Source: Obrimoposthia wandeli
Lineage: Eukaryota
Assembly: GCA_977020255.1 (NCBI GenBank)
Contig: CDROCS010001043.1
Coordinates: forward strand, 868,001 to 932,000
Direction of reading: 5' to 3'
DNA: 64,000 nucleotides
The notes under the pieces are model-generated. The model worked only from the letters and a program-made list of their open reading frames with translations, ran no database searches and had not been told where the DNA came from. Below, one piece after another: positions 35,816-64,000 of this stretch. The stretch's first letter is position 1, and every line of letters starts with the position of its first letter. The position numbers and the translations under genes are program-made.

Positions 35816-35897
35816 AGTAGGTGGATGTGTCCGGTCTAATCCACACCCCTCCCCCCCTCTGTCCTTTAAAACCGTGCATGTGTGTGGAGTGAAATTT
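35816..35897 (+). repeat. Left terminal repeat core of copy A
   Basis: Reverse complement of 61654-61733 apart from a few differences; AG-starting end typical of Polintons. Predicted TSD gatgta (35810-35815). Confidence 0.85.
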
Positions 35898-36230
35898 TCT
35901 ACCCCCCACCCAACACTCAAAAAACTAATTAACCCCATATAACACCCTTTAAAATTTAAAATCTCATAATGCTCCCAAAAAAGTGAGGAAGGTCCTGGGA
36001 GGCCGTTTAGTGGCCCAAAGCGTGCCCTCCGGGCCCGCGGTGGTTTAACGAGCAACACATATACAGGGTCGCGAAAAATTGTACGCGAGAATTTTTTTTT
36101 GAACCCTACGGGCGCGAAAAACATTTTTGCTATAAGAATTTATATCTTGATACATATATAGGGTCGCAAAAATTTTTAAATTATCAACTACATAAATTGG
36201 AAATTATATCAACATTTTCATTTATTCGGA

Positions 36231-36375
36231 TGAGTTATCGTTGAGTCATATGATGAGTAATCGATGAGTCATAGAATGAGTCATCATGACCTTAAATGAC
36301 CTTGACCTCATGATGACCTTCAATGACCTTGACCTCAAGAGGTCATGACCTTAACTTGACCTTAAATGACCTCTG
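36231..36375 (+). promoter_or_regulatory. Cluster of TGAGTCA (AP-1-like) and TGACCT/AGGTCA (nuclear-receptor half-site) motifs
   Basis: Three TGAGTCA, nine TGACCT and one AGGTCA, including AGGTCATGACCT, within ~145 bp upstream of the first viral gene. Function is inferred only. Confidence 0.4.
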
Positions 36376-36760
36376 AAAAAAATTCTACCCTTCAAACATG
36401 TACGGTCAAGAAAATATTACTATTTTAAATCCAAAGATATATATGTATTCAAACATCAACAAAAATTAATAAAATACTAGAAATTATTTGAATAATACGT
36501 TCTCATTGGACGTTGAACTTAAGCAACAAAAACTTAAGAAAATAATTATATTTTCAAATAATTTTTTTTTTTATCCAATGACATACTCGCATTCAACCGT
36601 AGTTAAAAAATTGATAAAAGCCTATGGATTTTTCAAATAAATTATTTGAATAACCCGCTTTAATTGGACGATAAAAGAGGGTAGGTCTGTTGTTTTTGTA
36701 TATAAGGAAACCGCTTATCATTATTTTTCATTAATCAAGAATGGCAAATTTCAACAACGT

Positions 36761-38790
36761 CGATTTGGATGAAGAGATGGAGGTACATATATATGGGGAT
36801 TTCTCTCCAGTACAGCAGCGAACGCCACCACCGGCACAGTACATTGACTTACTTAGTCAAGACTCGACGGTGGTGAGCAAAGGAGACGAAGGAGAAGCAG
36901 CAGCAAGAGCTGAGCTGTTGCTAGAAGAACCGCCATTGGCCAGCTCAACTCCGAGAGAAGAACCAAAGAGCGTGAGAGGTGGGTTACAGAGATCCCAATA
37001 TATCGACCTGACTAGTCAGGATTCGATTGAGAATTGGGAAGACTGTACTCCCAGGCTGAACACAGAAGCCAATCGTCCGGCAACTTCAGCATTAGCAGCA
37101 AGGAGATCCAATATCTTCCAGAATTTTGAGGCGGCAATCAAATGCCCCTGGAAATTGATCCCGCTTTCTCAGCCGGAGATAGTACTCGCACCAGACTCAG
37201 ACGAGGAGCTATTCACCGATGACGTTCCGTCGGATGGTGAGGAGGACTTGACTCCATTCATCGACGAATGGATACAGCCAAGTGTCGGAGCCCCAGTAGC
37301 CAACGATTCGATGGTGGCAGAATTGGATGAGGACGAGTGGCGCCTGTTCACTGACGATTGGGATGTAAATAAAGGCGATAAAGGCGACGAATGAGGTTAG
37401 ACATAATTTATTTTAAATGTTTTTTTATTTTCATTTTCAGAAACTTCAAATGGATTTGAGACCGTCAGTGACCACGATGGAGAGGCTGATTGAACCGCAG
37501 TACTTGGCGAGTCAATGTAGCCAGGATGATCCCAGGAGTGATCAGCAATACCTACCGACTCCGGCTAAATTGAGGTATATTATTATAAATTAGTTACTTA
37601 TTTTAATTATTCACATAGGAAGCCGAATTGGTAGAGGAAATTTGGGAGGAGGCAACTCTCAGACTACCCGTCGATAGGAAACAATGGGCGATTAAGAAAC
37701 CTCGACGCCATCGGGTCACAACTCACACTGTCCATCGAAAGAAGGCCAAGTTGGCGAATCAGGCTAACCTGCCCGTCATCGAGGTAAATTATTTATATTT
37801 TTAAATTTTATTTATGTTTTTGTTGCAGGAATCAATACAATTAACTGAGGAGACATGGGCAAAATTTCTCCTTTCCCACAGAAGCGAACGAGACAGGCTG
37901 CTGTACGGAAGATGAGGCGTCTTAGAAAGGCGAAATCTTGTCTGCTCAAATCGAGTGAAGTAACGATAGAGCGGCAAGAAAAACTTCCGTATAAGATTAT
38001 TGAGGTAAAATTTTAGATATTTAAATATTTTTTATATAAATGAATTTTATTTAAAATTTTATTAATGTTTTCTTTGCAGAAACACGCCCGGATAATTGAG
38101 GAGGCTTGGGGAGAAATTATTCCTTTTCCCAAGAAATGGACGAAGCGAGCAGAGGTGAAGAAGACGAGGCGCTCGAGAAAATGTAACACCTCAATTGGCC
38201 ATTATTCAGAGGCGGTGATTGGACGGCAGGAGATTCTCCCATCTCCAGTGGACGACGGTCCAATTTTATGCGAGAGGATCCCAGTCTCACCGATCGAGAT
38301 TAGTCCGCCATCAAGTCAACGACGCCTGCAGGAAACATCACCGGCTTCTCCTCGTCACACAACCAGCCAGAACTTAAAGAGGGCCTGGGATGAAGCTGGA
38401 TTGGACGAATTCCTGGCGGAACTGGATACACCGGCAATGCTACCAGATTCGCTAGGGAAACAGGATGCCGTCTCACGCCAACTTCAGCGTGAGAAGGAGG
38501 AGAAACAGAAGAAAGCTCCGCGGAAGAGGAAGGCTAATGCTTCTTTGTCAGGGCCATCAACATCGGCTGCATCTCCTCCCAAAAAGTTGCAGCAACTATT
38601 GCCAAAACCTTAGAGAAGGAAAATTGCTACAAAGCAACCGGTGAAGCTGAAAAAGAAACCGGGCCGGCCAAAGAAGAAGGAACCAGTACCGCTTTCTCCT
38701 ATAATACTTAGTCGGAGGGATTTCGACCCGGATGATCCCAATGATGACTTTGTAAAAAAAAAATATATATATATAATTTATAAACATTAG
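36761..38790 (+). pseudogene. Multi-exon disordered regulator-like gene X, copy A
   Basis: TATA box (tatataag) near 36700. Five exons separated by short GT-AG introns. Motifs YIDLLSQDS, YIDLTSQDS, PRKRK and KKPGRPKK. Frameshifts and a premature TAG at ~38610. Confidence 0.65.
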
Positions 38791-39069
38791 TTTCATATGT
38801 TTTATTGTTAGTATTTATTTAAATATCATCTTTAAGTTTATTAAAATATCAACATGAAAAAAATATTTAATTTATTCGCCAGTGATTGGATTAATAAGGA
38901 ATCATTGAAATTTTTAGGTTTAAATATAAATGCAATGATTAGTTATAGATTTATTAAACTTTCATTTGATACATAAAAATATATCATTTCATTGCTTGTG
39001 ATTGGATTAAAAATGTCTTAAATTTATATATATAGGTTCAAATTTATTAACCTCTTCATAATTTAAAAA

Positions 39070-39365
39070 ATGGAATTCATTAAATTGCAAAGCTTGGTAG
39101 CGAAGATAGAAGCAAACATCAGAATAAATGAGAAGAAAGGGGACTTAAGAAAGAGGATCCTCAATCAAAATTTGTATGCTGCTGTCGCGACCGAGTGGAA
39201 TCGCCGGGTGGAAATACAAGATAGGAGGCTAGCAGAACGACGTCGAATCGTGGAGTGGAATAAGAAGATCGAATTGGAAAAAAGGAAGGTGGATGAAAAA
39301 AGAAGAGAAGAGATGATGGATATTTGGAGGCAAGCAAGAAAAAGAATCCTCCAGTTTAAACCGGT
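39070..39365 (+). CDS. Small charged coiled-coil protein, copy A
   Basis: Frame conserved with 58760-59080; E/K/R-rich heptad-like pattern. Confidence 0.6.
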
Positions 39366-39770
39366 TAATTTTTTGATTAATTTTTGGTCTTTATTGATTA
39401 GGTTACATAATTGTTTAAATATTTTACATAAGCATACTAAATATAAACAATTTTATATATAATGTTTTTGTAAAATGGATAATAAAATTTGGAATAAATT
39501 ATACATAAAATTATCTCCAGATTTAATGGAAGATTATAAAAAAAATTAATTTTCAGAAAATTATACCGAGGAAATTGTTGGATATAAATTATGTAATTTA
39601 ATATCGAAATATTTAGGTATGTTTACATTTAATATAATTTATTTTAATATTCATAGGAGAATTGACAATATATACCAATCTTAACATGAAAGACTGAATA
39701 CTTTGTTATTTTAATAAATTTTTGATTTTTTCGTTATAAACAACGGGATTTGCTGCTAATTTAAATAATT

Positions 39771-40259
39771 ATGCAGGAATATATCATAGATTTTGAGGCT
39801 TTCATTAACAAAAATGGTGATTATATTATAAAAGAATTATGTATTATGGATGTATGCGACGTTTTTCATCTTTTGCATTTCATATTTCAAATAGATATCC
39901 CGTTTAAAAGTTTAGATTATAAGAAAAAATTTACTAATTTATATCTAACTAATTACTTTCATTTATTAAAATGGAAAGAAGGACATAAGGCTTTTTGTGA
40001 AATATGTATTTTCGATACAATAACATCTAATTTTGATATAGAAAATGGATTTTTTTATGTTTTAGATGAAATGGATGGCAAAAAATATAAGACTTTAAAA
40101 AAATATTTTCCCAAATTGAGGTTGAATACTTTAAATATTTCACGTGATCATCTAATAAAAATTCCACGAAATATTGGCTGTCCATATCGTAAACATGGTG
40201 ACCATTGCGCATATAAAAAATGTTTAAGTCTTTTTTATTATTACTTGACATGTAGATAA
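39771..40259 (+). CDS. Small DEDD/DnaQ-like nuclease-fold protein with C-terminal C/H cluster, copy A
   Basis: IIDFEAF..KELC motif and CPY..HGDHC. Intact 162-aa ORF, also intact in copy B. Confidence 0.65.
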   Translation: MQEYIIDFEAFINKNGDYIIKELCIMDVCDVFHLLHFIFQIDIPFKSLDYKKKFTNLYLTNYFHLLKWKEGHKAFCEICIFDTITSNFDIENGFFYVLDEMDGKKYKTLKKYFPKLRLNTLNISRDHLIKIPRNIGCPYRKHGDHCAYKKCLSLFYYYLTCR

Positions 40260-40489
40260 ACAATTCTTCTAATTGGAGAAATTCATTATTAAAATTTTAC
40301 AACTAATTACAAATAAGCCTTTTGATTGGAGGAATACAAATATTTTTTTTAACCAATAACAGATAAACAATCCTTCTCAGTGGACGGATAAATTCAATTT
40401 TTTAATCCAATAGGAAAAGAGCATGTGTGCATAAATTTTAGTATCTAAGCAAACACTTTCTTCATTTAAATCCCCGACAATTTGAAATA

Positions 40490-43400
40490 ATGACTATGGT
40501 AAGAATGTATATTTATTATTTCCTTATTAATATTTATTATTTCAGATTACTTGTATCCTGTTTCCAGCATATTGTGGTGCTTCGGCTCCGCATGGAGGAG
40601 AAACCTGCAGGGAGATAATGTCCGCCTACTATCGGACAAAGTCTCGCGGGATTCACTTCTTCGTCTGCCCCTTCTGCAGAACAATGGAGGAGAAGGAGTT
40701 TCGAGACTTCTTCGGTGAACATAGAGCTCATCTATCGTGTTTCACGGCCAACAACAAGAAGAGGGATATCGTGCAATTGGTGCACGATTCGCAGGCCGCT
40801 CCAGCTCCTGCTCCAATTCCAGTTGCAGTCGATCAACCCTTTTACGGTCCTGCCATTGGTCCTTCTGTCCCGGCTCCTGATTCTGCTGCTGCCCCATCCA
40901 TCAAATGACTAACAATGAGTGGATGAACGACATATCCGAAGAAGATTTTGAGGAGTTGGTACCAGCAACCCAATTCTCGAACAATGACTGGATGGAAAAT
41001 ATCACCCAGTCAGATTTCGAGATAGAGCAGCCTCAGTGGAGCGATAACTCCTGGTTGGAGACCATCGAGGAATCCGATTTCGTCGAGATAATGGACAACA
41101 GCTGGATGGATTCCATAAATGAAGAGGACTTCATTCCAGCTCTAGTTGGATTGCCTTCATTAGGTATTTTTTATTATTATTTTTTAAAATTGTAATTATA
41201 AATATTATTGTAATTATATATATTTTATTTTTTATTCAGGAAATACCGTGATACAATCGTCATCCGCTACGACAGCTATGCCTCCCCCATCGCGAGTGCC
41301 TACATCGATGTTAGCACGTCTTAAGGTAATAATTTTTAAAAATATATTTATTTCAGCAGCATCAGACTCTACAACAGCCGCTTCTTCATCGGCAAGGTCA
41401 GCTTCTACCACACCTACTCCAACTTCAAATGCAGCCTCTACAACTGCCACTGTCTCATCATCTGCGGCAGCATCTATCACGGCAGCATCGTCTACACCAG
41501 CTGCAATTGCCTCAACATCGGCAGCATCACCAATAGCAGCACCTTCAATCTCAGCTGCGTTTGTGTCAACTGTTAATATAAATAGTTGTCTTCCCGTTCA
41601 ATTAGAGGGAGGTTTGTCAGCGACTGTAGGAAGAAAGAGGCGAGGCCAATTTCTTAATAAGGTCCCACCAAAAAAACGTAGAGAAAACGGTGCTACTATA
41701 GAGTATCACCTAAATAATAAATATGTTATAGTTAAGGTGCCATTAGGAAATGAAATTTTATTAAACGTAGGTGTAGATTCAAATATTGAAAATCTTTTAA
41801 AATCAGAAGTGACTAAATTAGGACAGGCTAAGGTTCAATTTTGTGCAACAGTGCAGTTTAAAAATGTCAATGAGGCATCTAAAACTTGGGTATTTTCACA
41901 TAAACTAACTGTTTTCTATGATAATTTTGTAACTGAAATTGGAAGAAACCTAGATGAAAAAATTGCTAATTATAGTGAGTTAAGTAGTGGATGGAATCTA
42001 GTTAGAATTCAGGATGTTAGCTTTGTTCTAACAAAGTTCACTGACATGATATATCTTTCGGGGAGTTCATACATTCCTTCACCTAGATCTCTTCAACTTT
42101 CACGTTCCATTGTTAACATACAAAACAGTGATAACCTTTGCTTTCTGTATAGCGTGTTGGCCATCCTCAAAAAATCACTGAACATAGAGAGCGTGTCAGT
42201 AAATATACCCCTTTTTTAAATGAATTGCAGTATCATGGAATAGATTTTCCTGTTAAATTTACTGCGATATCAAGATTTAACATCTTAATAACTTGAGTAT
42301 TAATGTATTCAAATATAATACTGATATCCCAGTTAATGTAACAGATGAAGAAATTTTTAAAAATCCTTTTGTATATATGTAATTTATAGGAGCAAATATG
42401 AGAGGACTCAGGTCAACTTAATTTTGCTCGAACATAATAATAAATTCCATTATGCTGCAATTCCCAGTTTAGATCGTCTTCTAAATTTAAATAATGGAGC
42501 CTTACCGGTTAGGATAAGGTGTAAGTGGTGTCATAGATGTTTGCATGGATTCCGATCCGAGCTCTCTTACAGCAAACATCTGACATTATGTTCACTGAAT
42601 ATTGATGACAATACGCTATATAGCATGCCTAAGGATAAGGATTTAAAATTTTTGGATTGGGCAAAATGCATACCCGTGGAATTCAGGGTGTATGCAGATT
42701 TTGAGTCAATTTTAGCATTGCACGACCAGTATGAGAATATTCACCTACCGGCTTCGGCAGGACTACTATTCTTAGGCCCCAATATTACACAGTATCATAA
42801 ATTTTCCGGTCCAAATTGTATTTTAGATTTTATGTTAAAATTAGAAGAATTAGGAACAACAATTGTCAAACCGTGGTATGATCTCAATGCTCATCAAGCA
42901 ATGATCATGACAGGCATAGACTGGGTTAATTTTAAAACTTGTAGATTATGTTATTTATAGGGAACCCAGTCTAACTTACTCAGAGATCACGATCATGTTA
43001 CGGGGCGATACTTTGGAGCGGCGTGCAACCTCTGTAACCTTGGACGTCGTCTCCCTAAAAAAAACACGAACTCCCATCGTGTTTCATAACCTCAAAGGAT
43101 ATGATTTGCATCATATACTTAAATATGTGTTGGGTACATTAAGCTCTTGGGAAATTTCATGTACACCTCAAACTTCAGAGAAATATTTATCTTTAACTGC
43201 ATATACTGAATTCTGCAGTTTAAGATTCATAGATTCTCTGCAGTTTTTGAGCCAGTCTTTAAAAAATTTAACGGCATCTTTAAATGCATGGCCAATCACA
43301 CAGTCAGTGTTCCCAGCTTCGGTTAATGATAAGGGGATTTTTCCGTATAAATTTGCGAAAACCTTTGCAGATTTAGAAAATACTACAGAAATCCCACCCA

Positions 43401-44987
43401 TAACTGAATTTGAAAGTGTAAGTCTGGGTTAAGACTATAATGAGGCCCGTACATTTTGGGCGAATAATTGTCGAAATCTTCTTGAATATATGCTTTATTA
43501 TATGAAATTAAACATTTATCTTTTAGCTGATGTTTTTGAGTCCTTTCGTGTAAAGTCTTTAGCAGAAGATGGGCTAGATCCCATGCATTTCTTTAATTTA
43601 CATGGTCTTTCATGGGCAACAGCAATAAAAACTCTTAAAATTAATATCGAGTTACTGCAAGATCCCGTGATGTATCAAATGTATGATTATGGTATACGCG
43701 GTGGAATGACTTTTGTCAACAAACATCATGTTGTCAAAAAACAATCCACGGAGATTCTGTACATCGACATTAATAATTTGCATGGGTGGGCGCTTACTCA
43801 ACCTCTATCTCATGCCAACTTTAAGTGGGTTTATGATGAGAAAGAGTTGAATAAATTGATTTCAGATTTGGCTACTGTTGATACAGTTTCATCAAACGTC
43901 GGCTATTTGGTTGAGATTGACTTAAAAATCCCTCCCAATGTGCATGATAAATTAGATGATCTTCCAGGAGCACCTGTTCATCAATGTCCACCTAATTTAA
44001 AGGTTAAGAAATTATTGTTAACCTATGAAGATAAGTTGAATTATGTTGTGCATTGGCAGCTTCTTCAATTCTACTTAAAGTTGGGAGCGAAAGTTACTCG
44101 AATTCATCGTGCTATAAGCTTCAGTCAAAACTTTGTGTTTAAAGACTATATTGAGAAGAATTCAAGAAAACGTAATTTGGCCACTAGCAAATTCGATCGA
44201 GATTTTTACAAGTTAAAAAGTAATAGCTTCTTTGTAATAAAACTGTAGAGGACTTGCGGAAATGTATTTGTCTACGGTTCTGCAATGATGAGCGTAAACT
44301 AATAACATATACTAGCAAGTACAACTTCAAGCGTAGTTTTACAATTGCAGATGACTTGGTAGCAGTGTTATTAGGAAATTGAGTATTTGTCTCGATCGAC
44401 CGAGTTATATAGGTCAAACGGTTTTAGACATTTCTAAACTCAGAATGTACGAGCTTCAATACATAGAATTGGAGAAATATCGACGAGAATTCAATTGTGA
44501 GATCAAAATCGCAGCTGGGGACACTGACTCTTTCTTTTTAGAATGTAAAAATGTTAGTTTAAATAATCAATTATTACCGGCAATGTTTAATGACAACTTA
44601 TTAGATACCCATAAATATCACGCTAACCATCCTCTACACTCTATGAGGTTAAAGGATATTATCGGGAAATTTAAGGATGAAAGCGAGGGACAGGTTTCGT
44701 ATGATGATTGTATTTTCCTACGCCCTAAATGCTACAGTTTACATGCATCTAATAATACATGTTCAATGAGAGCAAAGGGTGTGGGAAGAAACAATCTTAC
44801 ACATGAGGCATACCGGAGAGTTTATGATACTGGGTGTATTGAAAGCGTTGAGCAAACTAGAATTATTTCAAGAGCCCATCAACTGTATTCCCATAAATCA
44901 ACCAAAATCGCTTTGAGTAGTAATGACGACAAGCGCTTTTGGGTAAAAAAGAACGCTAGCCTGGCTTATGGACACTTCCGAATTTAA
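40490..44987 (+). pseudogene. Protein-primed DNA polymerase B, copy A, spliced and multiply disrupted
   Basis: Motifs YADFES, FHNLKGYD, YIDINNL(H)G and AGDTDSFF. Introns at 40499-40545, 41164-41239 and 41326-41356. About eight stops or frameshifts relative to copy B. Confidence 0.93.
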
Positions 44988-45877: not shown

Positions 45878-46282
45878 TTAAACATAATACAACATATTGG
45901 CTTCACTCAAAGTCCAGAGAGGCTGCATTTTCCCGTCATCAGCAAAACATCCATTCAGACGTATTGAGATATTCCATAGTTCTTCATCTAGAATTGGATC
46001 AATCAAATATCCTAGATCATCTTTAAAATCCAGACTGGGTTCAGTTTCAAGCTCGAAACAATTTCCTTCATATACATAATCAGGAATGTAAAATCCCAAA
46101 ATATTTTTCACTTGATCAAAATCAGTTGTTGTTAAAATTTCGATGAGATATTTTTTCTCCACTTTTGATATTTTCACAGGATTCATAACTCGTATAATTT
46201 GATGCCTCTTTAATATATTACATAGTTTTCCTTTTGAAATTCTTTCTGGATAATAAAAATTTGCTACACATCTCTTATCCAT
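45878..46282 (-). CDS. Unknown Polinton protein U2 (paralog of the adjacent ORF)
   Basis: Open frame from MDKRCVANFYY; the homolog begins at 63966 in copy C. Confidence 0.6.
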   Translation of the reverse strand: MDKRCVANFYYPERISKGKLCNILKRHQIIRVMNPVKISKVEKKYLIEILTTTDFDQVKNILGFYIPDYVYEGNCFELETEPSLDFKDDLGYLIDPILDEELWNISIRLNGCFADDGKMQPLWTLSEANMLYYV

Positions 46283-46415
46283 TCTAAAATAAGGAAACTG
46301 ATTAAAAACAATGTTTATAAAAAATACACATAAGATACAAATATTTAAAAAATAAAACTGATTATTAAATGAAAGAAACATAGTAAAACCGATTACAATT
46401 TATTACACACAAAAG

Positions 46416-46891
46416 TTAAAACATAAAAATATGAGCACGTTCAATTTTCCACATAGGCAACTTTGTTCCCATTTCATCTTTCTTGTAACCATAAAGTCGA
46501 ATTGTTACAGTCCATTGCTTCTTTTTCTGAAACGCATCAATATCAACATATCTTCCATAGTCATCTAGAAATGCTTCATCGGGTCCTCGGATATAAAATT
46601 CGTTCTTATTGAAAGTAAAATTCGGAACTGCCTTTTCTATTTTCTGTTTAAGATATTGAAAATCAGGTTTTTGAATACCTGATAGATAGTAGCTGAACTT
46701 TCTTATTTCAATTGTCACAGGATTTACTAAAGCAATCAGTTGAATCAGTTCAAGAATCTGACTTTGTATTTGAAATATTGTTTCACTTCTTCATACATAT
46801 CCTTATCCGATTCTTCAAACATTTCTTCGTCATCGCTTAATACCCGTTGGCTATCATCCATCGTTGATAATTTTCTTTGATATGAATGCAT
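46416..46891 (-). pseudogene. Unknown Polinton protein U1, disrupted near 46740-46760
   Basis: Homologous to 63358-63840; the lesions differ between the two copies. Confidence 0.6.
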
Positions 46892-47107
46892 TTACTGTGA
46901 TTTGTCCTCCAATGGCGCATTCTTTTATACTAATTTCTAACAAAGACATGAATCTCATTGGTTAATATAACTAAAGCATTGAATTTGATTGGACTTAATA
47001 TATCATCCAATTATAATAGGTTTGCAAGATAATTACAAGAAACGTGCAATAAAAAAGCAGGTTCAGACATATATAAAGAAGATTTTACAGAATACAATTT
47101 CAGTCTA

Positions 47108-47607
47108 ATGAAACTCGTAAATATAAATTATAAAGGTAGAACAGAAGATGATGTTTCATACTTACCATTCAATGAATGGAAGCCTAGACAATATGTAGAA
47201 AAGTTTGACAATTTCACAGTTGTTATTTTTCCTACAGGTTAGTTTTTTATTTTATTTTCATATTGAATTCTTTAGGAAATTGTCGTGTTATGGGATGCAA
47301 AATACCAATGCTTGGGTTCAATTTACCATTTGGAATTCAAATCACTGCAATACAATCAATCACGATTTCGGTTAATCTCGGGAAACAGATACATCTTTTT
47401 AAAACTGCAGAGAAAATGAAAGAAGAATGCATGTTTGAACCAGGAAATTTTCCTGCTCTCAGTTATTTGAAGTTTAAACCGCTATGTGTAAATATATTTT
47501 CCAGTGGTAAAGTTATGATATTGGGATTGAAAAATTTTGATTATCCAGACATAGTTGATTTGATTTTAGAATATATATCTTATTACATCTTGTTATCTTT
47601 TCTATAA
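47108..47607 (+). CDS. TATA-binding protein (TBP)-like protein, 2 exons (47108-47237, 47276-47607), 153 aa
   Basis: Two TBP-like repeats: LVNINY..TVVIFPTGNCRVMGCK and IQSITIS..FEPGNFPALSY..VNIFSSGKVMILGLK. These compare with LQNIV..TALIFSSGKMVCTGAK and IQNMVGS..YEPELFPGLIY..LLIFVSGKVVLTGAK of TBP. The 38-nt GT-AG intron restores the frame. Confidence 0.78.
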
Positions 47608-47635
47608 ACAAACCTGTTTAAACTTATTGTTTCAA

Positions 47636-47839
47636 ATGAATAATACTATAAATAGAGACAATGAAGTGGATCGGCTTGCCGATGAAATATTTTCTGGAAA
47701 AATTAGAGGTAAAGAAATTTTATCAGAATTAAAAAATAATGATATAACAAGAGATAACATTGAAATATTGGTTAGATCACACGTTATTCGAGAATTTAGA
47801 AATCGTACACAAATAAATAAAATTATAGCCAAATATTAA
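47636..47839 (+). CDS. Small unknown protein (~67 aa)
   Basis: Frame conserved in copy C (62355-62588). Confidence 0.5.
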   Translation: MNNTINRDNEVDRLADEIFSGKIRGKEILSELKNNDITRDNIEILVRSHVIREFRNRTQINKIIAKY

Positions 47840-47945
47840 TTAATTAATTTTTGTATTTCATCTACAATAGCTCTAACATTGTACATTTCAATAAGGAAAC
47901 TTATATGATAATATAAACAATATTAAAAATGAAAGAGTATATGCA

Positions 47946-48593
47946 ATGGAGCTAAATAATAATGCTGTATTGCAAATAGTTGGCACTAGTGGAAGTGGAA
48001 AGACACATTTCGTCTGTAAATTGTTGCAAAATGAATCTCTTTTCAAATCTAGTTTCAAAAATATTTATTGGCATCATGGTGGAGGAGGGGAAAGCGGGTT
48101 AACCAAAACAGAAGTTTGCAAGTTGAAGGGTATAAAATTTATTGAAGGATTTGATGCAAATTGGTGTGAAAGATTGAAAAAAGAAGATGTAATAATAATT
48201 GATGATTTGCATGAGGAGGCTAACAAGGAATCGGACTTTAATAATTTATTTACAAAGATTGCAAGACATCGTGAAGTAACAGTTATATTTATCACTCAAA
48301 ATCTGTTTCACCAAGGAGGTCATCATAGAACAAGAAATCTTAATGTACATTACTTAGTTTTATTTAAAAATCCTAGAGATCAAACAGTTGTTGATTTTGT
48401 GGCCAGACAGGCATTTCCTCAAAATAAGAACTTTCTAGTTGATTCATTCCACGATGCTGCTAAACAAGCACATGGGTATATATTTATTGACTTTACACAA
48501 GCTTGCCCAGATGATTTACGTGTTTTAACAGACATATTTAATTCTAAGGGAGTAACTGTTTATAAACAAATAGAGAACAATTATAAAAAATAA
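47946..48593 (+). CDS. Genome-packaging ATPase (A32/FtsK-HerA family)
   Basis: Walker A GTSGSGKT, Walker B IIIDD and ARH..IFITQNLF motif; intact. Confidence 0.93.
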   Translation: MELNNNAVLQIVGTSGSGKTHFVCKLLQNESLFKSSFKNIYWHHGGGGESGLTKTEVCKLKGIKFIEGFDANWCERLKKEDVIIIDDLHEEANKESDFNNLFTKIARHREVTVIFITQNLFHQGGHHRTRNLNVHYLVLFKNPRDQTVVDFVARQAFPQNKNFLVDSFHDAAKQAHGYIFIDFTQACPDDLRVLTDIFNSKGVTVYKQIENNYKK

Positions 48594-49096: not shown

Positions 49097-49182
49097 ACAA
49101 TTATTTATAAAATCAGCTAAAGATATGGGTGCTAGCCCTTCTTTACTTAAACTTAAATTTTCTTTCTATTCAAATTGTTGTA

Positions 49183-50215: not shown

Positions 50216-50216
50216 T

Positions 50217-52844: not shown

Positions 52845-52845
52845 A

Positions 52846-53225: not shown

Positions 53226-53501
53226 TGTGTTATAAAAATAAAAATTTTAAATGTTTTATTTTGAATTATTTTTTAAATCTCTAAAAATATAAGGGTAAAA
53301 TAATAAAAGACATAAGACAACTTTTTATAATACATTTATTAATCACAACATCACAATGAGATATGTCAGCAAAGATAAGGCATAATAAATAAGGTCTATC
53401 CTAAAAAAGTATTGAAATAACAAATAAGTTAGAGTTTAGGTGCCATAGGGATCTAAAATTTTAAAAAACTAAACTAACAAAAATCAAAAAATGAAAACCG
53501 T

Positions 53502-56500
53502 TTAAATTCTGAAGTGTCTATAAGCCAGGCTAGCATTCTTTTCTACCCAAAAGCGCTTGTCGTCATTACTACTCAAAGCGATTTTGGTTGATTTATGGGA
53601 ATACAGTTGATGGGCTCTTGAAATAAATCTAGTTTGCTCAACGCTTTCAATACACCCAGTATCATAAACTTTCCGGTATGCCTCATGTGTAAGATTGTTT
53701 CTTCCCACACCCTTTGCTCTCATTGAACATGTATTATTAGATGCATGTAAACTGTAGCATTTAGGGCGTAGGAAAATACAATCATCATACGAAACCTGTC
53801 CCTCGCTTTCATCCTTAAATTTCCCGATAATATCCTTTAACCTCATAGAGTGTAGAGGATGGTTAGCGGGATATTTATGGGTATCTAGTAAGTTGTCCCT
53901 AAACATTGCTGGTAATAGATGATTATTTAAACTAACATTCCTACATTCTAAAAAGAAAGAGTCAGTGTCCCCAGCTGCGATTTTAATCTCACAATTAAAT
54001 TCTTGTCGGTATTTCTCCAATTCTATGTATTGAAGCTCATACATTCTGAGTTTAGAAATGTCTAAAACCGTTTGACCTATATAACTCGGTCGATCGAGAC
54101 AAATACTCTGTTTTCCTAATAACACTGCTACCAAGTCATCTGCAATTGTAAAACTACGCTTGAAGTTGTACTTGCTAGTATATGTTATTAGTTTACGCTC
54201 ATCATTGCAAAACCGTAGACAAATACGTTTCCGCAAGTCCTCTACAGTTTTTCCAAAGAGACTATTACTTTTTAACTTGTAAAAATCTCGATCGAATTTG
54301 CTAGTGGCCAAATTACGTTTTCTTGAATTCTTCTCAATATAGTCTTTAAACACAAAGTTTTGACTGAAGCTTATAGCACGATGAATTCGAGTAACTTTCG
54401 CTCCCAACTTTAAGTAAAATTGAAGAAGCCGCCAATGCACAACCTAATTCAACTTATCTTCATGGGTTAACAATAATTTCTTAACCTTTGAATTAGGTGG
54501 GCATTGATGAACAGGCGCTACTGGAAGATCATCTAATTTATCATGCACATTGGGAGGGACTTTTATGTCCACCTCAACCAAATAGCCGACGTCGGATGAA
54601 ATTGTATCAACAGTAGCCAAATCTGTCATCAACTTATTCAACTGATCCACATCATAAACCCACTTAAAGTTGGCATGAGGTAGAGGTTGAGTAAGCGCCC
54701 ACCCATACAAATTATTAATATCGATGTACAGAATCTCCGTGGATTGATTTTTGACAACATGATGTTTGTTGACAAAAGTCATTCCACCGCGTATACCATA
54801 ATCATACATTTGATACATCGCGGGATCTTGCAGTAACTCGATATTAATTTTAAGAGTTTTTATTGCTGTTGCCCATGAAAGACCAGGTAAACTAAAGAAA
54901 TGCATGGGATCTAGCCCATCTTCTACTAAGGATTTTACACGAAAGGACTCAAAAACATCAGCTAAAAGATAAATGTCTAACTTCATATAATAAAGCATAT
55001 ATTCAAGAAGATTTCGACAATTATTCGCCCAAAATGTACGGGCCTCATTATAGTCTTGAAGACTTACACCCTCAAATTCAGTTATGGGTGGGATTTCTGT
55101 AGTATTTTCTAAATCTGCAAAGGTTTTCGCAAATTTATACGGAAAAATCCCCTATCGTTAACCGAAGCTGGGAACACTGACTGTGTGATTGGCCATGCAT
55201 TTAAAGATGCCGTTAAATTTTTTAAAGAACCACTCAAAAACTGCAGAGAATCTATGAATCTTAAACTGCAGAATTCAGTATATGCAGTATATGCAGTTAA
55301 AGATAAATATTTCTCTGAAGTTTGAGGTATACATGAAATTTCCCAAGAGCTTAATGTACCCAACGCGTATTTAAGTATATGATGCAAATCATATCCTTTG
55401 AGGTTATGAAACACGATGGGAATGCGTAGTTTTTTAGGGAGACGACGGCCAAGGTTACAGAGGTTGCACGCCGCTCCCAAGTATCGCCCCGTAACATGAT
55501 CGTGATCTCTGACTAACTTAGACTGGGTTCCACACAAATAACATAATTTACAAGAATTAAAATTAACCCAGTCTATGCCTGTCATGATCATTGCTTGATG
55601 AGCATTGAGATCATACCACAGTTTGACAATTGTTGTTCCTAATTCCTCTAATTTTAACATAAAATCTAAAATACAATTTGGACCGGAAAATTTATGATAC
55701 TGGGTAATATTGGGGCCTAAGAATAGTAGTCCTGCCGAAGCCGGTAGGTGAATACTCTCATACTGGTCGTGCAATGCTAAAATTGACTCAAAATCTGCAT
55801 ACACCCTGAATTCCACGGGTATGCATTTTGCCCAATCCCTGAATTTTAAATCCTTATCCTTAGGCATGCTATATAGCGTATTGTCATCAGGATTCAGTGA
55901 ACATAATGTCAGATGTTTGCTGTAAGAGAGCTCGGATCGGAATCCATGCAAACATCTATGACACCACTTACACCTTATCCTAACCGGTAAGGCTCCATTA
56001 TCTAAATTTAGAAGACGATCTAAACTGGGAATTGCAGCATAATGGAATTTATTATTATGTTCGAGCAAAATTAAGTTGACCTGAGTCCTCTCATATTTGC
56101 TCCTATAAATTACATACACAAAAGGATTTTTAAAAATTTCTTCATCTGTTACATTAACTGGGATATCAGTATTATATTTGAATACATTAATACTCAAGTT
56201 ATTAAGATGTTCAAATCTTGATATCGCAGTAAATTTAACAGGAAAATCTATTCCATGATACTGCAATTCATTTAAAAAATGGGTATATTTACTGACACGC
56301 TCTCTATGTTCAGTGATTACACCCCTTTTGAGGATGGCCAACACGCTATACAGAAAGCAAAGGTTATCACTGTTTTGTATGTTAACAATGGAACGTGAAA
56401 GTTGAAGAGATCTAGGTGAAGGAATGTATGAACTCCCCGAAAGATATATCATGTCAGTGAACTTTGTTAGAACAAAGCTAACATCCTGAATTCTAACTAG

Positions 56501-57948
56501 AGTCCATTCACTACTTAACTCGCTATAATTAGCAATTTTTTCATCCAGGTTTCTTCCAATTTCAGTTACAAAATTATCATAAAAAACAGTTGCTTTATGT
56601 GAAATTTCCCAAGTTTTAGATGCCTCATTGACATTTTTAAACTGCACTGTTGCGCAAAATTGAACCTTAGCCTGTTCTAATTTAGTCACTTCGGATTTTA
56701 AAAGATTTTCAATATTTGAATCTACACCTACGTTTAATAAAATTTCATTTCCTAATGGCACCTTAACTATAACATATTTATTATTTAGGTAATACTCTAT
56801 AGTAGCACCGTTTTCTCTACGTTTTTTTGGTGGGACCTTATTAAGAAATTGGCCTCGCCTCTTTCTTCCGTTTGTCGCTGACAAACTTCCCCCTAATTGA
56901 ACGGGAAGACAACTAGTTATATTAATCGCAGCTGAGGTTGAAGGTGCTGCTATTGGTGATGCTGCCGATGTTGAGGCAATTGCAGCTGATGTGGAAGCTG
57001 CTGCTATTGTTGATGCTGCCGATGTTGAGGCAACCGTAGCTGATGTTGAAGGGGCTACTGTAGCAGGTGCTGCTGATGTTGATGAGACAGTGGCAGTTGT
57101 TGAGGCTGCATTTGAAGCTGACTTGCCGATGAAGAAGCGGTTGTTGTAGAGGTTAGTGCTGCTGAAATATATTAAAAAATAAATATATTTTTAAAAATTA
57201 TTACCTCTAAGGCGTGCTAACATCGATGTAGGCACTCGCTATGGTGGAGGCATATCTATTGTAGCAGATGACGATTGTAGAACGGTATTTCCTGAATAAA
57301 AAATATAAATAAAATATATATATTAAAAAATAAAATATCTAATTTAAAAATAATAATAAAAAATACCTAATGAAGGCAATCCAAGTTGTGCTGGAATGAA
57401 GTCCTCTTCATTGACGAAATCCATCCAGCTGTCGTCCGACATCTCGACGAAATCGGATTCCTCGATGGTCTCCAACCATGAGTTATCGCTCCACTGCTCT
57501 ATCTCGAAATCTGACTGGGATATGTCATTCATCCACTCATTGTTAGACATTTGAGTGGATGGGTCAGAATCAGGAGCCTGGAGACCAATCGCAGGACCGT
57601 AAAAGGGTTGATCGACTGCAACTGGAATTGGAGGTGGAGCGACCTGCGAATCGCGCACCAATTGCATGATATCCCTCTTCTTGTTGTTGGCCGTGAAACA
57701 CGATAGATGAGCTCGATGTTCACTGAAGAAGTCTCGAAACTCCTTCTCCTCCATTGTTCTGCAGAAGGGGCAGACAAAGAAGTGAAGCCCGCGAGACTTT
57801 GTCCGGTAGTATGCAGACATTGTCTCCATGCAGGTCTCTCCTCCATGTGGAGCCGAAGCACCACAATACGCAGGGAATAGGTTACAAGTAATCTAAAATA
57901 ATAAATATTAATAAGGAAATAATAAAAATAAATTCTTACCATAGGCAT
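53502..57948 (-). pseudogene. Protein-primed DNA polymerase B, copy B; 4 exons (57948-57940, 57892-57367, 57291-57205, 57161-53502), about four lesions
   Basis: vOTU-like DNLCF..INVF..HY; Zn/HNH-like CYLC..RDHDH..ACNLCN; Exo YADFES and FHNLKGYD; Pol YIDINNLYG, KLKSNSLFGK and GDTDS. -1 frameshifts at ~57130 and ~55150; TAG at 54444 and one in exon 3. Confidence 0.95.
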
Positions 57949-58148
57949 TATTTCAAATTGTCGGGGATTTAAATGAAGAAAGTGTTTGCTTATATACTAA
58001 AATTAATGCACACATGCTCTTTTCCTATTGGATTAAAAAATTGAGAAGGTTTGTTTATCTGTTAAATGGTCGAAAAAAATATTTTTTTATTCCTCCAATC
58101 AAAAGATTTAATTGTAATTGAATGAAAATTATGAATTAGAAGAATTTT

Positions 58149-58637
58149 TTATCTACATGTCAAGTAATAATAAGAAAGACTTAAACATTTTTTATATGCG
58201 CAATGGTCACCATGATTACGATATGGACAGTAAATATTTTGTGAAATTTTTAATAGATGATCACGTGAAATATTTAAAGTATTCAACCTCAATTTAGGAA
58301 AATATTTTTTTAAAGTCATATATTTTTTGCCATCCATTTCATCTAAAACATAAAAAATTCCATTTTCAATATCAAAACTAGATGTTATTGTATCGAATAT
58401 ACATATTTCACAAAAAGCCTTATGTCCTTCTTTCCATTTTAATAAATGAAAATAATTAGTTAGATATAAATTAGTAAATTTTTTCTTATAATCTAAACTT
58501 TTAAACGGGATATATATTTGAAATATGAAATGGAATGGATGAAAAACGTCGCATACATCCATAATACATAATTCTTTTATAATATAATCCCCATTTTTGT
58601 TAATGAAAGCCTCAAAATCTATGATATATTCCTGCAT
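58149..58637 (-). CDS. Small DEDD/DnaQ-like nuclease-fold protein, copy B
   Basis: Intact 162-aa ORF, near-identical to 39771-40259. Confidence 0.65.
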   Translation of the reverse strand: MQEYIIDFEAFINKNGDYIIKELCIMDVCDVFHPFHFIFQIYIPFKSLDYKKKFTNLYLTNYFHLLKWKEGHKAFCEICIFDTITSSFDIENGIFYVLDEMDGKKYMTLKKYFPKLRLNTLNISRDHLLKISQNIYCPYRNHGDHCAYKKCLSLSYYYLTCR

Positions 58638-58759
58638 AATTATCTAAATTTGCAGCAAATCCCGTTGTTTATAACGAAGTACTTTCATGTTAAGATTGGT
58701 ATATTTTGTCAATTCTCCTATGTAACATAATCAATAAAGACAAAATAATAATCAAAAAT

Positions 58760-59080
58760 TTATTTTTTTGTGGAAGGACCCTCTTCCGGTTTAATCTGGA
58801 GGATTCTCTTTCTTGCTGCTCGCCGAACATCCTCCATCTTTTCTCTTATTTTTTCATTCACCTTCCTTTTTTCCAATTCGATCTTCTTATTCCACTCCAC
58901 GATTCGATGGCGTTCTGCTAGCCTCCTATCCTGTATCTCCACCCGATGATTCCACTCTGTCGCGACAGCAGTATACAAATTCTGGTTGAGGACTCTCTTT
59001 CTTAAGTCCCCTTTCTTCTCATTTATTCTGATGTTTGCTTCAATCTTCGTCACCAGACTCTTCATTTTAATGAATTCCAT
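58760..59080 (-). CDS. Small charged coiled-coil protein, copy B
   Basis: Intact; homolog of 39070. Confidence 0.6.
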   Translation of the reverse strand: MEFIKMKSLVTKIEANIRINEKKGDLRKRVLNQNLYTAVATEWNHRVEIQDRRLAERHRIVEWNKKIELEKRKVNEKIREKMEDVRRAARKRILQIKPEEGPSTKK

Positions 59081-59299
59081 TTTTTTTAATTATGAAGAGG
59101 TTAATAAATTTGAACCTATATATATAAATTTAAGATATTTTTTAATCCAATTAAATGATATATTTTTATTTATCAAATGAGTGTTTAATAAATCTATAAC
59201 TTATCATTGCAAATAAACTTAAAGATAGTGTTTCTACATTTAAAAAAATAAATATTAAGAAGAAAACATATGAAACTAATTTTTATAAATTATATTTTT

Positions 59300-61090
59300 A
59301 AACATCTTTACGAAGTCATCATTGGGATCATTCGGGTCGTAATCCCTCCGACTAAGTATTATAGGAGAAAGCGGTACTGGTTCCTTCTTCTTTGGCCGGC
59401 CCAGTTTCTTTTACGGCTTCACCGGTTGCTTTGTAGCAATTGTCCTTCCCTCAGGTTTTGGCAATAGTTGCCGCAACTTTTTGGGAGGAGGTGCAGCCGA
59501 TGTTGATGGCCCTGTCATAGAAGTCCTCTTCCTCTTCCGCGGAGCTTTCTTCTGTTTCTCCTCCTTCTCACGTTGAAGCTGGCGTGAGACGGCATCCGGT
59601 TGCCCATGCGAATCTGGAAGCATTGCCGGTGAATCCAGTTCCGCCAGGAATTCATCCAATCCAGCTTCATCCCAGGCCCTCTTCAAGTTCTGGCTGGTTG
59701 TTGGATGAGGAGAAGCAGTCTCCTGCAGGCGTCGTTGACTTGATTGCGCACTTATCTCGATCGGCAAGACTGGGATCCTCTCATATAGGATTGGTCCGTC
59801 GTCCACTGGAGATTTGAGAATCTCCTGCTGGCCAATCACCGCCTCAGAATAATGGTCAATTGAGGTGTTACATTTTCTAGAGCGCCTCGTCTTTTTCACC
59901 TCTGCTCTCTTCGTCCGTTTCCGCGAGAAAGGAGTAATTTCTCCCCAAGTCTCCTCAAATATCTGGACGGGTTCCTGCAAAATATTAATAAAATTTAAAC
60001 ATATAAATAATTTACCTCAATGATGGGCAGGTTAGCCTGTTTCACCAACTTGGCCTTCTTCCGAGTGAGGGTTTTGACCCTATGGCGTTGCGGTTTCTTC
60101 ACTGCCGCTTGCTTCCTATCCACCGGTTGAATAGACGTCGCCTCTTCGTGAATGTTCTCCATCTATGTGAATTATTAAATTTAATATCTAAATAATTTAC
60201 CTTAAAATTATCTGGAGACGCTAGGTATCGGAGCTGACTCCTTGGCAGCTCCTGGCTGCATTGACTCGCCAAGTACTGCGGTTCAATTAGCCTCTCCACC
60301 ATGGTCACTGACGGTGCCAAATCCAGTTGAAGTTTCTGAAAATGAAATTAAAAAACATTTAAAATAAATGATGTCTAACCTCATTCATTGCTTTTATTCT
60401 CCTAACAGGAGATTTCGGCCTTTTGAATGGTTTAGGCATTGTATTATCTGATTTCGGAGTAGCAGAGGGAGTGAGACCATCCCAATCGACGGTAAACAGG
60501 TGCCACTCGTCCTCGTCCAATTCTGCTACCATCGACTCGTTGGCTTCAGGGGCTCCGATACTTGGCTGTATCCATTCGTCGATGAATGGAGTCAAGTCCT
60601 CCTCCCAATCCGAAGGTACATCATCGGTGAACAGCTCCTCGTCTGAGTCTGGTGCGAGGACTTTCTCCGGTTGAGACAGCGGGATCAATTTCCAGGGGCA
60701 TTTGATTGCTGCCTCAAAATTGTCGAAGAGATTGGATCTCCCTGCTGCTACATCTGAAGTTGGCGGACGATTGGGTTTTGTGTTTTGTCTGGGAGTACAG
60801 TCTTCCCAATTCTCTATCGAATCCTGACTAGTCAGATCGATATATTGGGATCTCTGTACCCCACCTCTCACGTCCACTGGTTCTTCTCTTGGAGTTGAGC
60901 TGGCCAATGAGGCTTCTTCTTGTAACAGGTTCGCTCTTGCTGCTGCTTCTCCTTCGCTCACCACCGATGACTCTTGACTATCTAAGTCAATGTATTGCGA
61001 CGGTGGTGGCGTTCGCTGCTGCACTGGAGAGAGATCCCCATAGAGTTGAACCTCCGTCTCTTCGTCTAGGTCAACGTTGTTGTCAGCATT
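59300..61090 (-). pseudogene. Multi-exon regulator-like gene X, copy B (introns 60379-60336, 60200-60163, 60015-59975)
   Basis: Three phase-0 introns of 44, 38 and 41 nt join the exons into one frame. The start region looks damaged and TAA at 59411 precedes the AT-hook-like motif. Confidence 0.7.
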
Positions 61091-61348
61091 GTTGATTTAT
61101 GAAAAATAATGAACGGAGGTGTCTTTATATACACAAACATCTTAATAACCCTCTTTTATTGTCCAATGAGAGCCTCTTATTCAAATAATTTATTTTTTGT
61201 AATGTTTTTTCGTGCCTGTAGATGCCCATCGTTGTTATTTTCGTGAGAATAGAGCCCGCCCCGAAGGGGCAGGTGGTGGTCGGTTGGGTGTTTCCATCCA
61301 ACACCCGTCGACTTTCACTCATCACCCGAGGTAGTTAGTGATATACAC

Positions 61349-61578
61349 GAGAGCGAGACATTCGTACATCGCCAAGCTAGTCTGTGACCTATTTGAGAGC
61401 GAGACATCCGTACATCGCCAAGCTAGTCTGTGACCTATATGAGAGCGAGACATCCGTACATCGTCAAGCTAGTCTGTGACCTATATGAGAGCGAGACATC
61501 CGTACATCGCCAAGCTAGTCTGTGACCTATATGAGAGCGAGACATCCGTACATCGCAGAGCTAGTCTGTGACATATAT
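61349..61578 (+). repeat. Five tandem copies of a 46-bp unit in the subterminal region of B
   Basis: gagagcgagacatccgtacatcgccaagctagtctgtgacctatat; units start at 61349, 61395, 61441, 61487 and 61533. Confidence 0.95.
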
Positions 61579-61593
61579 CAGTCCCGAGCCCTT

Positions 61594-61733
61594 CCTTGTC
61601 CTTTAAAACCGTGCATGTGTGTGGAGTGAAATTTCACTCCACACACCTACACGAAATTTCACTCCACACACATGCACGGTTTTAAAGGACAAGGGGGGAG
61701 GGGTGTGGATTAGACCGGACACATCCACATACT
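61594..61733. repeat. Right terminus of B with internal 41-bp inverted repeat and 30-bp palindrome
   Basis: 61594-61634 is the reverse complement of 61654-61694; 61617-61646 is a perfect palindrome; 61654-61733 matches the left end of A. Confidence 0.9.
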
Positions 61734-62267
61734 ATACCCATGTGCTTGTTTACCAGCATCGTGGAATGAATCAACTAAAAAGTTCTTATTTTGAGGAAAT
61801 GCCTGTCTGGCCACAAAATCAACAACTGTTTGATCTCTAGGATTTTTAAATAAAACTAAGTAATGCACATTAAGATTTCTAGTTCTATGGTGACCTCCAT
61901 GGTGAAAAAGATTTTGAGTGATAAATATAACTGTTACTTCACAATGTCTTGCAATCTTCGTAAATAAATTATTAAAGTCTGATTCCTTGTTAGCTTCCTG
62001 ATACAAATCATCAATTATTATTACATCTTCTTTTTTCAATCTTTCACACTAATTTGCATCAGATCCTTCAATAAATTGTATTCCCTTCAACTTGCAAACT
62101 TCTGTTTTGGTTAATCCGCTTTCCCCTCCTCCACCATGAGGCCAATAAATATTTTTGAAACTAAATTTGAAAAGAGATTTATTTTGCAACAATTTACATA
62201 CGAAATGTGTCTTTCCACTTCCACTGGGACCAACTATTTGAAATACAGAATTATTATTTAGCTCCAT
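61734..62267 (-). pseudogene. Packaging ATPase of copy C, frameshifted and truncated by the B terminus
   Basis: GPSGSGKT and IIIDD. Homology to the intact ATPase ends abruptly at ..CAT GGG TAT|AGTATGTGG. Confidence 0.9.
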
Positions 62268-62607
62268 TGCATATACTCTTTCATTTTTTTAATATTGTTT
62301 ATATTATCATAGAAGTTTCCTTATTGAAATGTACAATGGTAGAGCTATTGTAGATTAAATACAAAAATTAATTAATGAATATTTGGCTATAATTTTATTT
62401 ATTTGTATACGATTTCTAAATTCTCGAATAACGTGTGATCTAACCAATATTTCAATGTTATCTCTTGTTATATCATTATTTTTTAATTCTGATAAAATTT
62501 CTTTACTCCTAATTTTTCCAGAAAATATTTCGTCGGCAAGCCGATCCACTTCATTGTCTCTATTTATAGTATTATTCATTTGAAACAATAAGTTTAAACG
62601 GGTTTGT

Positions 62608-63108
62608 TTATAGAAAAGATAACAAGATGTAATAAGATATATTTTCTAAAATCAAATCAACAATGTCTGGATAATCAAAATTTTTCAATTCCAATATCAT
62701 AACTTTATCACTGGAAAATATATTTACACATAGCGGTTTAAACTTCAAATAACTGAGAGCAGGACAATTTCCTGGTTCAAACATGCATTCTTCTTTCATT
62801 TTATCTGCAGTTTTAAAAAGATTTATCTGTTTCCCAAGATTAGCCGAAATCGTGATTGATTGTATTGCAGTGATTTGAATTCCAAATGGTAAATTGAACC
62901 CAAGTATTGGTATTTTGCATCCCATAACACGACAATTTCCTAAAAGAATTCAATATGAAAATAAAATAAAAAACTAACCTGTAGGAAAAATAACAACTGT
63001 GAAATTGTCAAACTTTTCTACATATTGTCTAGGCTTCCATTCATTGAATGGTAAGTATGAAACATCATCTTCTGTTCTACCTTTATAATTTATATTTACG
63101 AGTTTCAT
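62608..63108 (-). CDS. TBP-like gene, copy C (intron 62978-62940)
   Basis: Same intron position as in B (39 nt here). Substitutions in conserved motifs (FPAL to CPAL, SSGK to SSDK, LGLK to LELK) suggest decay. Confidence 0.7.
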
Positions 63109-63357
63109 TAGACTGAAATTGTATTCTATAAAATCTTCTTTATATATGTCTGAACCTGCTTTTTTATTGCACGTTTCTTGTAATTATCTTGCAAACCTAT
63201 TATAATTGGATGATATATTTCTTCCAATCAAATTTGATTTTTAATATGGATTTAGTCCAATCAAATTCAATGCTTTAGTTATATTAACCAATGAGATTCA
63301 TGTCTTTGTTAGAATTGAGTATAAAAGAATGCGTCATTGGAGGACAAATCATAGTAA

Positions 63358-63840
63358 ATGCATTCATATCAAAGAAAATTATCAACGATGGATGATAGCC
63401 AACGGGTATTAAGCGACGAGGAAGTTATAGAAATGTTTGAAGAATCGGATAAGGATATGTATGAAGAAGTGAAACAATATTTCAAATACAAAGTCAGATT
63501 CTTGAAGAAGGCTCAACTGAGTGCTTTAGTAAATCCTGTGACAATTGAAAGAAGAAAGTTCAGCTACTATCTATCAAATATTCAAAAACCAGATTTTCAA
63601 TATCTGTAACAGAAAGTTGAAAAGGCAGTTCCGAATTTTACTTTCAATAAGAACGAATTTTATATCCGAGGACCCGATGAAGCATTTCTAGATGACTATG
63701 GAAGATATGTTGATATTGATGCATTTCCGAAAAAGAAGCAATGGACTGTAACAATTCGACTTTATGGTTACAAGAAAGATGAAATGGGGACAAAGTTGCC
63801 TATGTGGAAAATTGAACGTGCTCATGTTTCTATGTTTTAA
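63358..63840 (+). pseudogene. Unknown protein U1, copy C, premature TAA at 63607
   Basis: Homolog of 46416-46891. Confidence 0.6.
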
Positions 63841-64000
63841 CTTTTACGTGTCGGTTTTACTATGTTTCTTTCATTTAATAATCAGTTTTATTTATTTAAA
63901 TATTTGTATCTTATATGTATATTTTTTATAAACATTGTTTTTTTAATCAGTTTCCTTATTTTAGAATGGATGAGAGATGTGTAGCAAATTTTTATTAACC

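Follow-up and report, generated by a model that had tools for sequence, protein, structure and literature searches.

Does a Polinton (Maverick) come to lie inside a gene of its own family because new copies are steered into old ones, or by chance insertion in a genome rich in such elements? This question is raised by a 64,000-nucleotide stretch of the Obrimoposthia wandeli genome (contig CDROCS010001043.1, here C1043:868001-932000, from a 1.35-Gb assembly with 6,912 contigs), hereafter the window, in which one Polinton copy, B, lies in reverse orientation between two parts, A and C, of another copy; the flank beyond position 64000 was examined as locus L009. A first-pass annotation of the window had suggested self-targeting or a landing-site cluster. 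With moderate confidence, we favor a plainer account, in which B is a same-family Polinton that landed by chance, in inverted orientation, in the ATPase gene of the older element A+C, after which 4.8 kb of the host and the left junction of B would have been deleted. The parts of the locus that bear on this account are the following.

35810-35815, plus strand: left copy of the host target site duplication (TSD), GATGTA; the right copy is at 64783-64788 (L009:783-788).
35816-45179, plus strand: A, the polymerase-side part of the host Polinton, with a terminus beginning AGTAGG and accessory open reading frames (ORFs).
About 41188-44987, within A: broken protein-primed polymerase gene (PF03175, E 3.8e-9).
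45180-45636, no strand: run of 457 N letters at the left junction of B, too short for a 4.8-kb block if its length is true.
45637-61733, minus strand: B, the inverted copy of the same family, with 16.1 kb visible, its ATPase-side end on the left and its polymerase-side end at 61733.
61276-61733, minus strand: polymerase-side end of B with an intact terminus, 46-bp tandem repeats, and a 100-bp palindrome (61594-61694).
61734-61739, plus strand: candidate target hexamer ATACCC, inside the host ATPase gene and a weak match to the target preference of the family.
61734-64000, minus strand: C, the right arm of the host, with the 5' part of the ATPase gene and a TBP-like gene, running on to 64782 (L009:782).
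62608-62949, minus strand: TBP-like gene of C (PF00352), adjoining the ATPase gene.

A and C together are one Polinton insertion with a 6-bp TSD. The sequence past position 64000 had been predicted to close with an element end and then GATGTA, and it does so: the end ..CATCCACCTACT falls at 64782 (L009:782) and is followed by the same hexamer as that at 35810-35815. By hand arithmetic, a match of this kind has a chance of about 1 in 3,000 at 70% AT, or about 1 in 500 given the target preference of the family. Because GATGTA stands at both outer ends, A and C belong to a single insertion, as had been proposed; their ends are also alike over 82 bp (93.9%), as terminal inverted repeats. Self-BLAST aligns A (35816-45179) in inverted orientation with B 61733..53297, at 77-95% by block and 92.5% over a 4.3-kb polymerase block, and C (61733-64000), again inverted, with B 48480..46248 at 94% identity, so that both alignments bear out the reverse orientation of B relative to A+C. 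A PF04665 profile search located the 5' part of the packaging ATPase gene in C; an integrase is absent from visible A+C. The first-pass annotation had read the gene order of A+C as that of B reversed, which is correct for the visible parts, but a homolog of B 48480-53296 (4.8 kb, from the protease to the 3' part of the ATPase gene) is lacking in the 12.4 kb of A+C. Adding 4.8 kb to these 12.4 kb gives 17.2 kb, compared with 17.4-17.5 kb in two TSD-bounded copies.

On its right side, B meets C at an exact point. Positions 61720-61750 read ..CACATCCACATACT and then directly ATACCCATG, the terminus of B meeting C between the two, and the ATPase frame of C (minus strand) runs ..KQAHGY and passes straight into the terminus at 61733; the earlier observation that B adjoins this gene in mid-frame after CAT GGG TAT is exact in both sequence and frame translation. 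The junction sequence occurs once in the genome when up to two mismatches are allowed. No bridging contig was found across 61733 among 32 listed pieces of about 86,000 (contigs only, from four runs of one sample); the four runs contained 0.57-0.64 of 14 sampled words, and the contig search is uninformative on the junction either way. The terminus of B begins AGTAT, a point variant of the usual AGTAG found at 229 of 15,511 termini; as a subfamily mark it was set aside, none of the 100 matches listed (of 229) forming an element-length pair. The copies at the inner ends of B (45639-45684 and 61231-61276) match at 85%.

Judged by decay, A and C look older than B. In alignments of 10-38 copies, A has 9.9, 14.0, and 18.1 private substitutions per kb where B has 5.3, 5.3, and 7.6; the figures for C are 13.8 and 8.2 per kb, versus 8.6 and 5.5 in B, the host part exceeding B in all five segments. 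Many comparison copies in the first segment had been picked for likeness to A, which biases against an older A, and many in the last for likeness to B, which biases toward an older host. Stops and frame changes are more numerous in A or C than in B in the polymerase, the ATPase, and the TBP-like gene. The heavier lesion load ascribed earlier to A and C is therefore upheld for these genes and for private substitutions, but not for one left-arm ORF, in which B carries more lesions than the host, nor for the other small ORFs, which are tied or one apart. Three core genes of B (polymerase, integrase, and minor-capsid gene) are broken as well. B differs from A or C by 2.8-6.7% and from its nearest other copy by 1.4-2.9% in all five segments; since it stands nearer to other copies than to its host, an origin as a fold-back duplicate of that host, or of A, was ruled out.

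The absence of the 4.8-kb block is likely due to a later deletion. The block had been expected to lie hidden in the gap at 45180-45636, an expectation that failed: the run, the sole one in the window, is only 457 letters long, and, as N letters occur in 0 of 300 loci of the same assembly (1.62 Mb; two loci overlapping the run itself were left out), an undersized gap at this position is unlikely. The bases right after the run belong to the inner part of the ATPase-side end of B. B-type ATPase-side ends measure 330-1,468 bp from terminus to first anchorable base in the 19 of 29 sister loci with a recognizable terminus; the window has space for 460 bp, and 16 of the 19 are longer. Locating the left terminus of B by assuming equal end lengths was rejected, the two ends of one element being unequal in the two TSD-matched cases measured (445 versus 651 and 478 versus 723). 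Deletions of this sort are common in the family: a break falls within 3.2 kb in about 18 of 29 sister loci, those closest to the end of A (hand count). TSD-matched partners were found for only 39 of 86 termini in the census described below and, within the fetched range, for only 2 of 14 B-type elements, and in two inverted nestings (C5380 and C6075) one junction has gone together with host DNA; one clean nested case with a TSD is known (C6:213601-219665, CCAATG). The simplest reading would be a single deletion that removed this block together with the left hexamer and the outermost part of the B end.

Whether such a landing calls for self-targeting depends on how much of the genome the family occupies. 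Exact 27-nt Polinton termini number 15,511 and polymerase motifs 10,064 (reversed controls, 0 in each case), and there are at least 4,434 ATPase motifs; by count, and with each copy taken as 12-17.5 kb, the family makes up 9-13% of the genome. In 40 random 10-kb stretches, sampled from 63 listed contigs of larger size, family DNA amounted to 23.6% (bootstrap 14-34%), or 18.5% at 85% identity or more; because polymerase motifs are over-represented in this sample, 23.6% is an upper bound.

The census comprised every exact terminus listed on contigs C1-C12 (86 of 86). Seven termini adjoin family DNA (8.1%, confidence interval 3.3-16%; six events), and the probability of seven or more is 0.66 at 9% occupancy, rising to 0.94 at 13% and to about 1 at 24%; the nested fraction thus shows no enrichment over 9-24% occupancy, and depletion is not established. 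That new copies avoid old ones is a bolder possibility (8% of termini nested, compared with a family share of 18-24% in the large contigs sampled), but avoidance is not shown by these figures: it has p values of 1.5e-4 at 23.8%, 0.11 at 13%, and 0.48 at 9%, the random sample being over-rich. Scaled to the genome, some 500-2,500 exact termini would be nested. B-type ATPase-side ends are nested in 4 of 19 cases (3 events of 18), still inside the occupancy range, and all stored loci, a mixed set, include 20 nested among 187 distinct termini, in 17 events at 17 different sites. The orientation of nesting is not significantly biased (11 inverted versus 6 direct events, p 0.33) in a set that includes loci fetched because they were nested, and in which L091 and L290 were assigned manually to the inverted class, as B-type ends confuse the script, and L117 was scored as direct. 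Nor did nesting appear to make ends fragile: TSD-matched partners are present for 2 of 7 nested and 37 of 79 other termini (Fisher p 0.45). At the other ends of the nested cases C27, C76, C276, and C3545, no terminus was found within the 10 kb fetched. The 86 termini point to a weak, palindromic target preference, nAYRTn, with A at -5 in 47 and T at -2 in 51, and they adjoin 78 distinct hexamers.

Twenty TSD-matched pairs occur among the census termini. Seven of the 20 are gene-less derivatives of 175-808 bp that retain both termini and TSDs (for example, C1:72187-72369, C3:194845-195027, C4:429239-429415, and C1:254279-255086). At C3:34994, 68665, and 102346 (L050-L052), three termini that share a flanking hexamer follow one another at a spacing of 33.7 kb, either a tandem triplication or an assembly repeat.

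Self-targeting, in which a chromodomain-bearing integrase would direct fresh insertions to older copies or to a single region, is very unlikely in light of these counts. The integrase of B does carry a chromodomain (PF00385), and in the chromoviruses among the long terminal repeat (LTR) retrotransposons such a domain guides targeting to heterochromatin; three older related Polinton relics (67-87% identity) also lie within about 40 kb (window 4620-5976; L011:1-5808; L009:3831-5873). But family DNA is present in 21 of the 40 random 10-kb stretches, so relics close by do not point to a cluster; the nested fraction is not above 9-24%, the 17 nested events fall at 17 sites, and the junction at 61733 is unique. 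An insertion hotspot after the polymerase was also considered and dropped: L171 and L179 share the layout at the left of the window, with ATCTTG, and that junction is found four times, but host deletions are common to the four copies and outer flanks to pairs of them, so that they represent one event that was duplicated. These four copies of a nested composite, a deleted host with an inverted B-type end, are in C280, C1055, C4200, and C5806 (L243-L246), the pairwise flanks marking them as segmental duplicates or haplotypes. Self-targeting and a landing-site cluster, as suggested in the first-pass annotation, are contradicted at the resolution of this sample, with which a weak bias (under about twofold) is still compatible; what survives of the nested reading is an inverted insertion of B in an older-looking A+C, from the TSD and the private substitutions, and not the clean host block. 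The titles and abstract openings that we searched, which covered few subscription papers and are no proof of absence, showed no test of Polinton self-targeting.

The favored history begins with A+C, a single insertion marked by its GATGTA duplication. B, whose intact end stands in the ATPase gene at 61733/61734, would have followed, as its fewer private changes suggest. With a weak palindromic target preference and 9-24% occupancy, about 1 in 10 insertions would be expected to land in a sibling. A repair-type deletion may then have removed the left ataccc along with the host protease-capsid-integrase-3' ATPase block, and probably also the outer part of the left end of B, and about 490 bp would finally have been swapped between the inverted arms, by likely gene conversion. 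Several observations weigh against this history. The left junction of B falls within the N run, which would hide the deletion breakpoints and the left TSD; no read or contig spanning the 61733 junction was among those listed; and the 457 letters of the run, compared with 455-458 for the other end of B, would fit an intact left end too. ATACCC ranks at the 1st percentile among the 86 target hexamers (1 of 86 as low; likelihood ratio 0.17), and so poor a hexamer for this family leaves some doubt whether it was the original target. The occupancy estimate is also loose, the random stretches having contained seven polymerase motifs versus 3.0 expected.

The poor hexamer and the length of the N run, within 3 bp of the other end of B, would both be explained if B had inserted just past the A polymerase (within about 130 bp of 45179) and a deletion starting from its polymerase-side end, through abortive excision or intramolecular integrase attack, had joined it to the ATPase gene, ATACCC then being a deletion junction. 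Three of the 19 B-type ends are short enough for this; however, 16 are too long, the breakpoint must fall exactly on the terminus, the deletions in C5380 and C6075 took a terminus away rather than beginning at one, and a joint made by integrase would gain no advantage from a poor hexamer, so that we consider this course of events rather improbable. It seems less probable again that the host was without most of the block before B arrived, or that two B-like insertions recombined and deleted the interval between them. Internal deletions are very common, and in 4 of 14 B-type elements the terminus found in the expected range has a flank that does not match, but the deletion is present in 0 of 29 loci closest to the last 220 bp of A (the nearest, L108, jumps from 52698 to 48275), and it would be unlikely for B to have landed within 130 bp of a breakpoint already present, or for a single 17-kb host to have been hit twice.

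Little credence can be given to a clean nested insertion, in which the N run would be an undersized gap over about 5.3 kb and B would have ataccc at either end: within the window, masked letters look the same as a gap, and the CCAATG case provides a precedent, but the N-free loci of this assembly are rich in termini and repeats, and the window has no second N run. A chimeric mis-assembly at 61733 between repeats is the least credible of the alternatives; with about 10,000 near-identical copies in the genome and no bridging contig among those listed, from runs holding the fraction of sampled words given above, it has to be considered, but GATGTA matches at both outer ends, the join is on the exact terminal base, and A and C are alike in their excess of private changes. 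Insertion by chance followed by deletion is the account that we retain.

B has the following predicted genes.

47209-47607, plus strand: TBP-like ORF (PF00352, E 6e-11), with two homologs at 49-50% identity.
47895-48593, plus strand: open frame of the packaging ATPase, A32-type (PF04665, E 3e-7).
49111-50208, plus strand: rve integrase (PF00665, E 3.6e-13) with the C-terminal chromodomain and one internal stop.
50202-51260, plus strand: probable minor capsid (penton) gene, broken, which we so name from its position and a resemblance.
51597-52844, plus strand: major capsid protein (MCP), with a predicted structure that matches viral MCPs.
52872-53225, plus strand: probable maturation cysteine protease, a candidate adenain-type enzyme so named from His-Trp and Gln..Cys-Gly motifs.
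53502-57190, minus strand: protein-primed DNA polymerase B (pPolB), broken (PF03175, E 4e-9).

The pPolB, rve integrase, A32-type ATPase, terminal inverted repeats, and a TSD of 6 bp that characterize Mavericks/Polintons were all found. A model of the MCP built from an 82-sequence alignment has a pLDDT of 91.2 (the single-sequence fold reached only 30), and Foldseek matched it to the iridovirus capsid protein 8hif (E 1.7e-15) and to the PBCV-1 and mavirus MCPs. The capsid proteins of iridoviruses, PBCV-1, and mavirus are double jelly-rolls, and the model predicts that B encodes the double jelly-roll MCP typical of Polintons. The penton candidate, which in a sister copy is an ORF of 354 aa lying between integrase and MCP, has no Pfam match above cut-off; the protease candidate has no significant Pfam or PDB match, and PDB sequence searches with the capsid protein likewise returned nothing significant. 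B-type ends (61283-61581; loci L153-L181) vary in their number of 46-bp repeats, with 0-16 motif matches.

The two inverted arms also appear to have exchanged sequence, as suggested by one further feature.

41997-42489, plus strand: tract of A near-identical (99.6%) to its inverted homolog in B, with rare variants in common.

Within this tract, only 2 of 491 sites distinguish A from B, versus 96.1-98.2% identity of 14 other copies to A, and the flanks of the tract match between A and B at 95.5% and 96.5%. Variants at 42012 and 42260 are found in A and B only, and a motif including 42397 and 42403 has four occurrences in the genome, two of them at this locus; a second motif matched A alone, as it spans an indel of A, and an apparent shared site at 42176 was discounted. 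A has three small indels of its own within the tract, which was 1 of 11 intervals scanned. This likeness probably arose by gene conversion between the inverted arms; a polishing artefact is possible, the size being close to that of a short-read fragment.

Nested Mavericks are already known, and B in A+C is a further case. They have been published for Trichomonas vaginalis (TvMav; PMC12289875), a protist host, the available part of that paper containing no tests for targeting, orientation, or the fate of junctions; in Halocafeteria seosinensis, also a protist, nested viral elements comprise 5 polinton-like viruses (PLVs) and 9 virophages (10.64898/2026.07.28.741278), a mixture of virophage and PLV subtypes in which same-family nesting is not singled out in the portion available. 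Retrotransposons lie within PLVs and polintons according to the accessible parts of two reports (PMC12220804; 10.1101/2025.02.07.637071). Type 1 Ngaros resemble our case in being elements within an integrated virus-like element, but 91% of them are inside EMALE virophages, which themselves show no sequence-specific integration (PMC8547959, as far as available); that is true targeting, in contrast to the 8%, chance-level nesting found here.

The family has much in common with vertebrate Mavericks as described in the accessible part of PMC8097293, including pPolB, rve integrase, packaging ATPase, MCP, terminal inverted repeats, a 6-bp TSD, two opposite-strand modules pointing to the center, and a majority of degraded copies. 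It differs in having the ATPase in the integrase-capsid module, in its TBP-like gene, and in ends of AGTAGG rather than (AG)3 or (AGT)2. Its copy number of about 10,000 compares with a vertebrate median of 8 and maximum of 287 (PMC8097293, same part), and Mavericks are given as 0.3% of a weevil genome in the part available of PMC8576890. Elsewhere in the window are a 2.6-kb element (923-3534) whose inverted arms, about 760 bp long, are 92% identical, and an array of purine-rich direct repeats of 62-135 bp (25647-26323).

The A+B+C locus is a fossil without function of its own, and an ordinary one, to be expected where one family fills at least a tenth of a genome. As a test case, it allows a number to be put on self-targeting, and the answer is no, despite the integrase chromodomain. 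Of greater value than the locus itself are the family load and the tract of likely conversion. From the tract it would seem that inverted copies, once nested, trade sequence where they lie, and we offer, as a tentative and rather speculative idea, that hundreds of 10-kb inverted repeats have arisen through chance self-nesting and would serve as a recombination engine for the family, yielding the mosaic and deleted copies that predominate in it through conversion in cis and loss of junctions and gene blocks. With at least 10,064 polymerase copies, compared with the vertebrate maximum of 287, this is a rare genome in which to measure the target preference and decay of Polintons.

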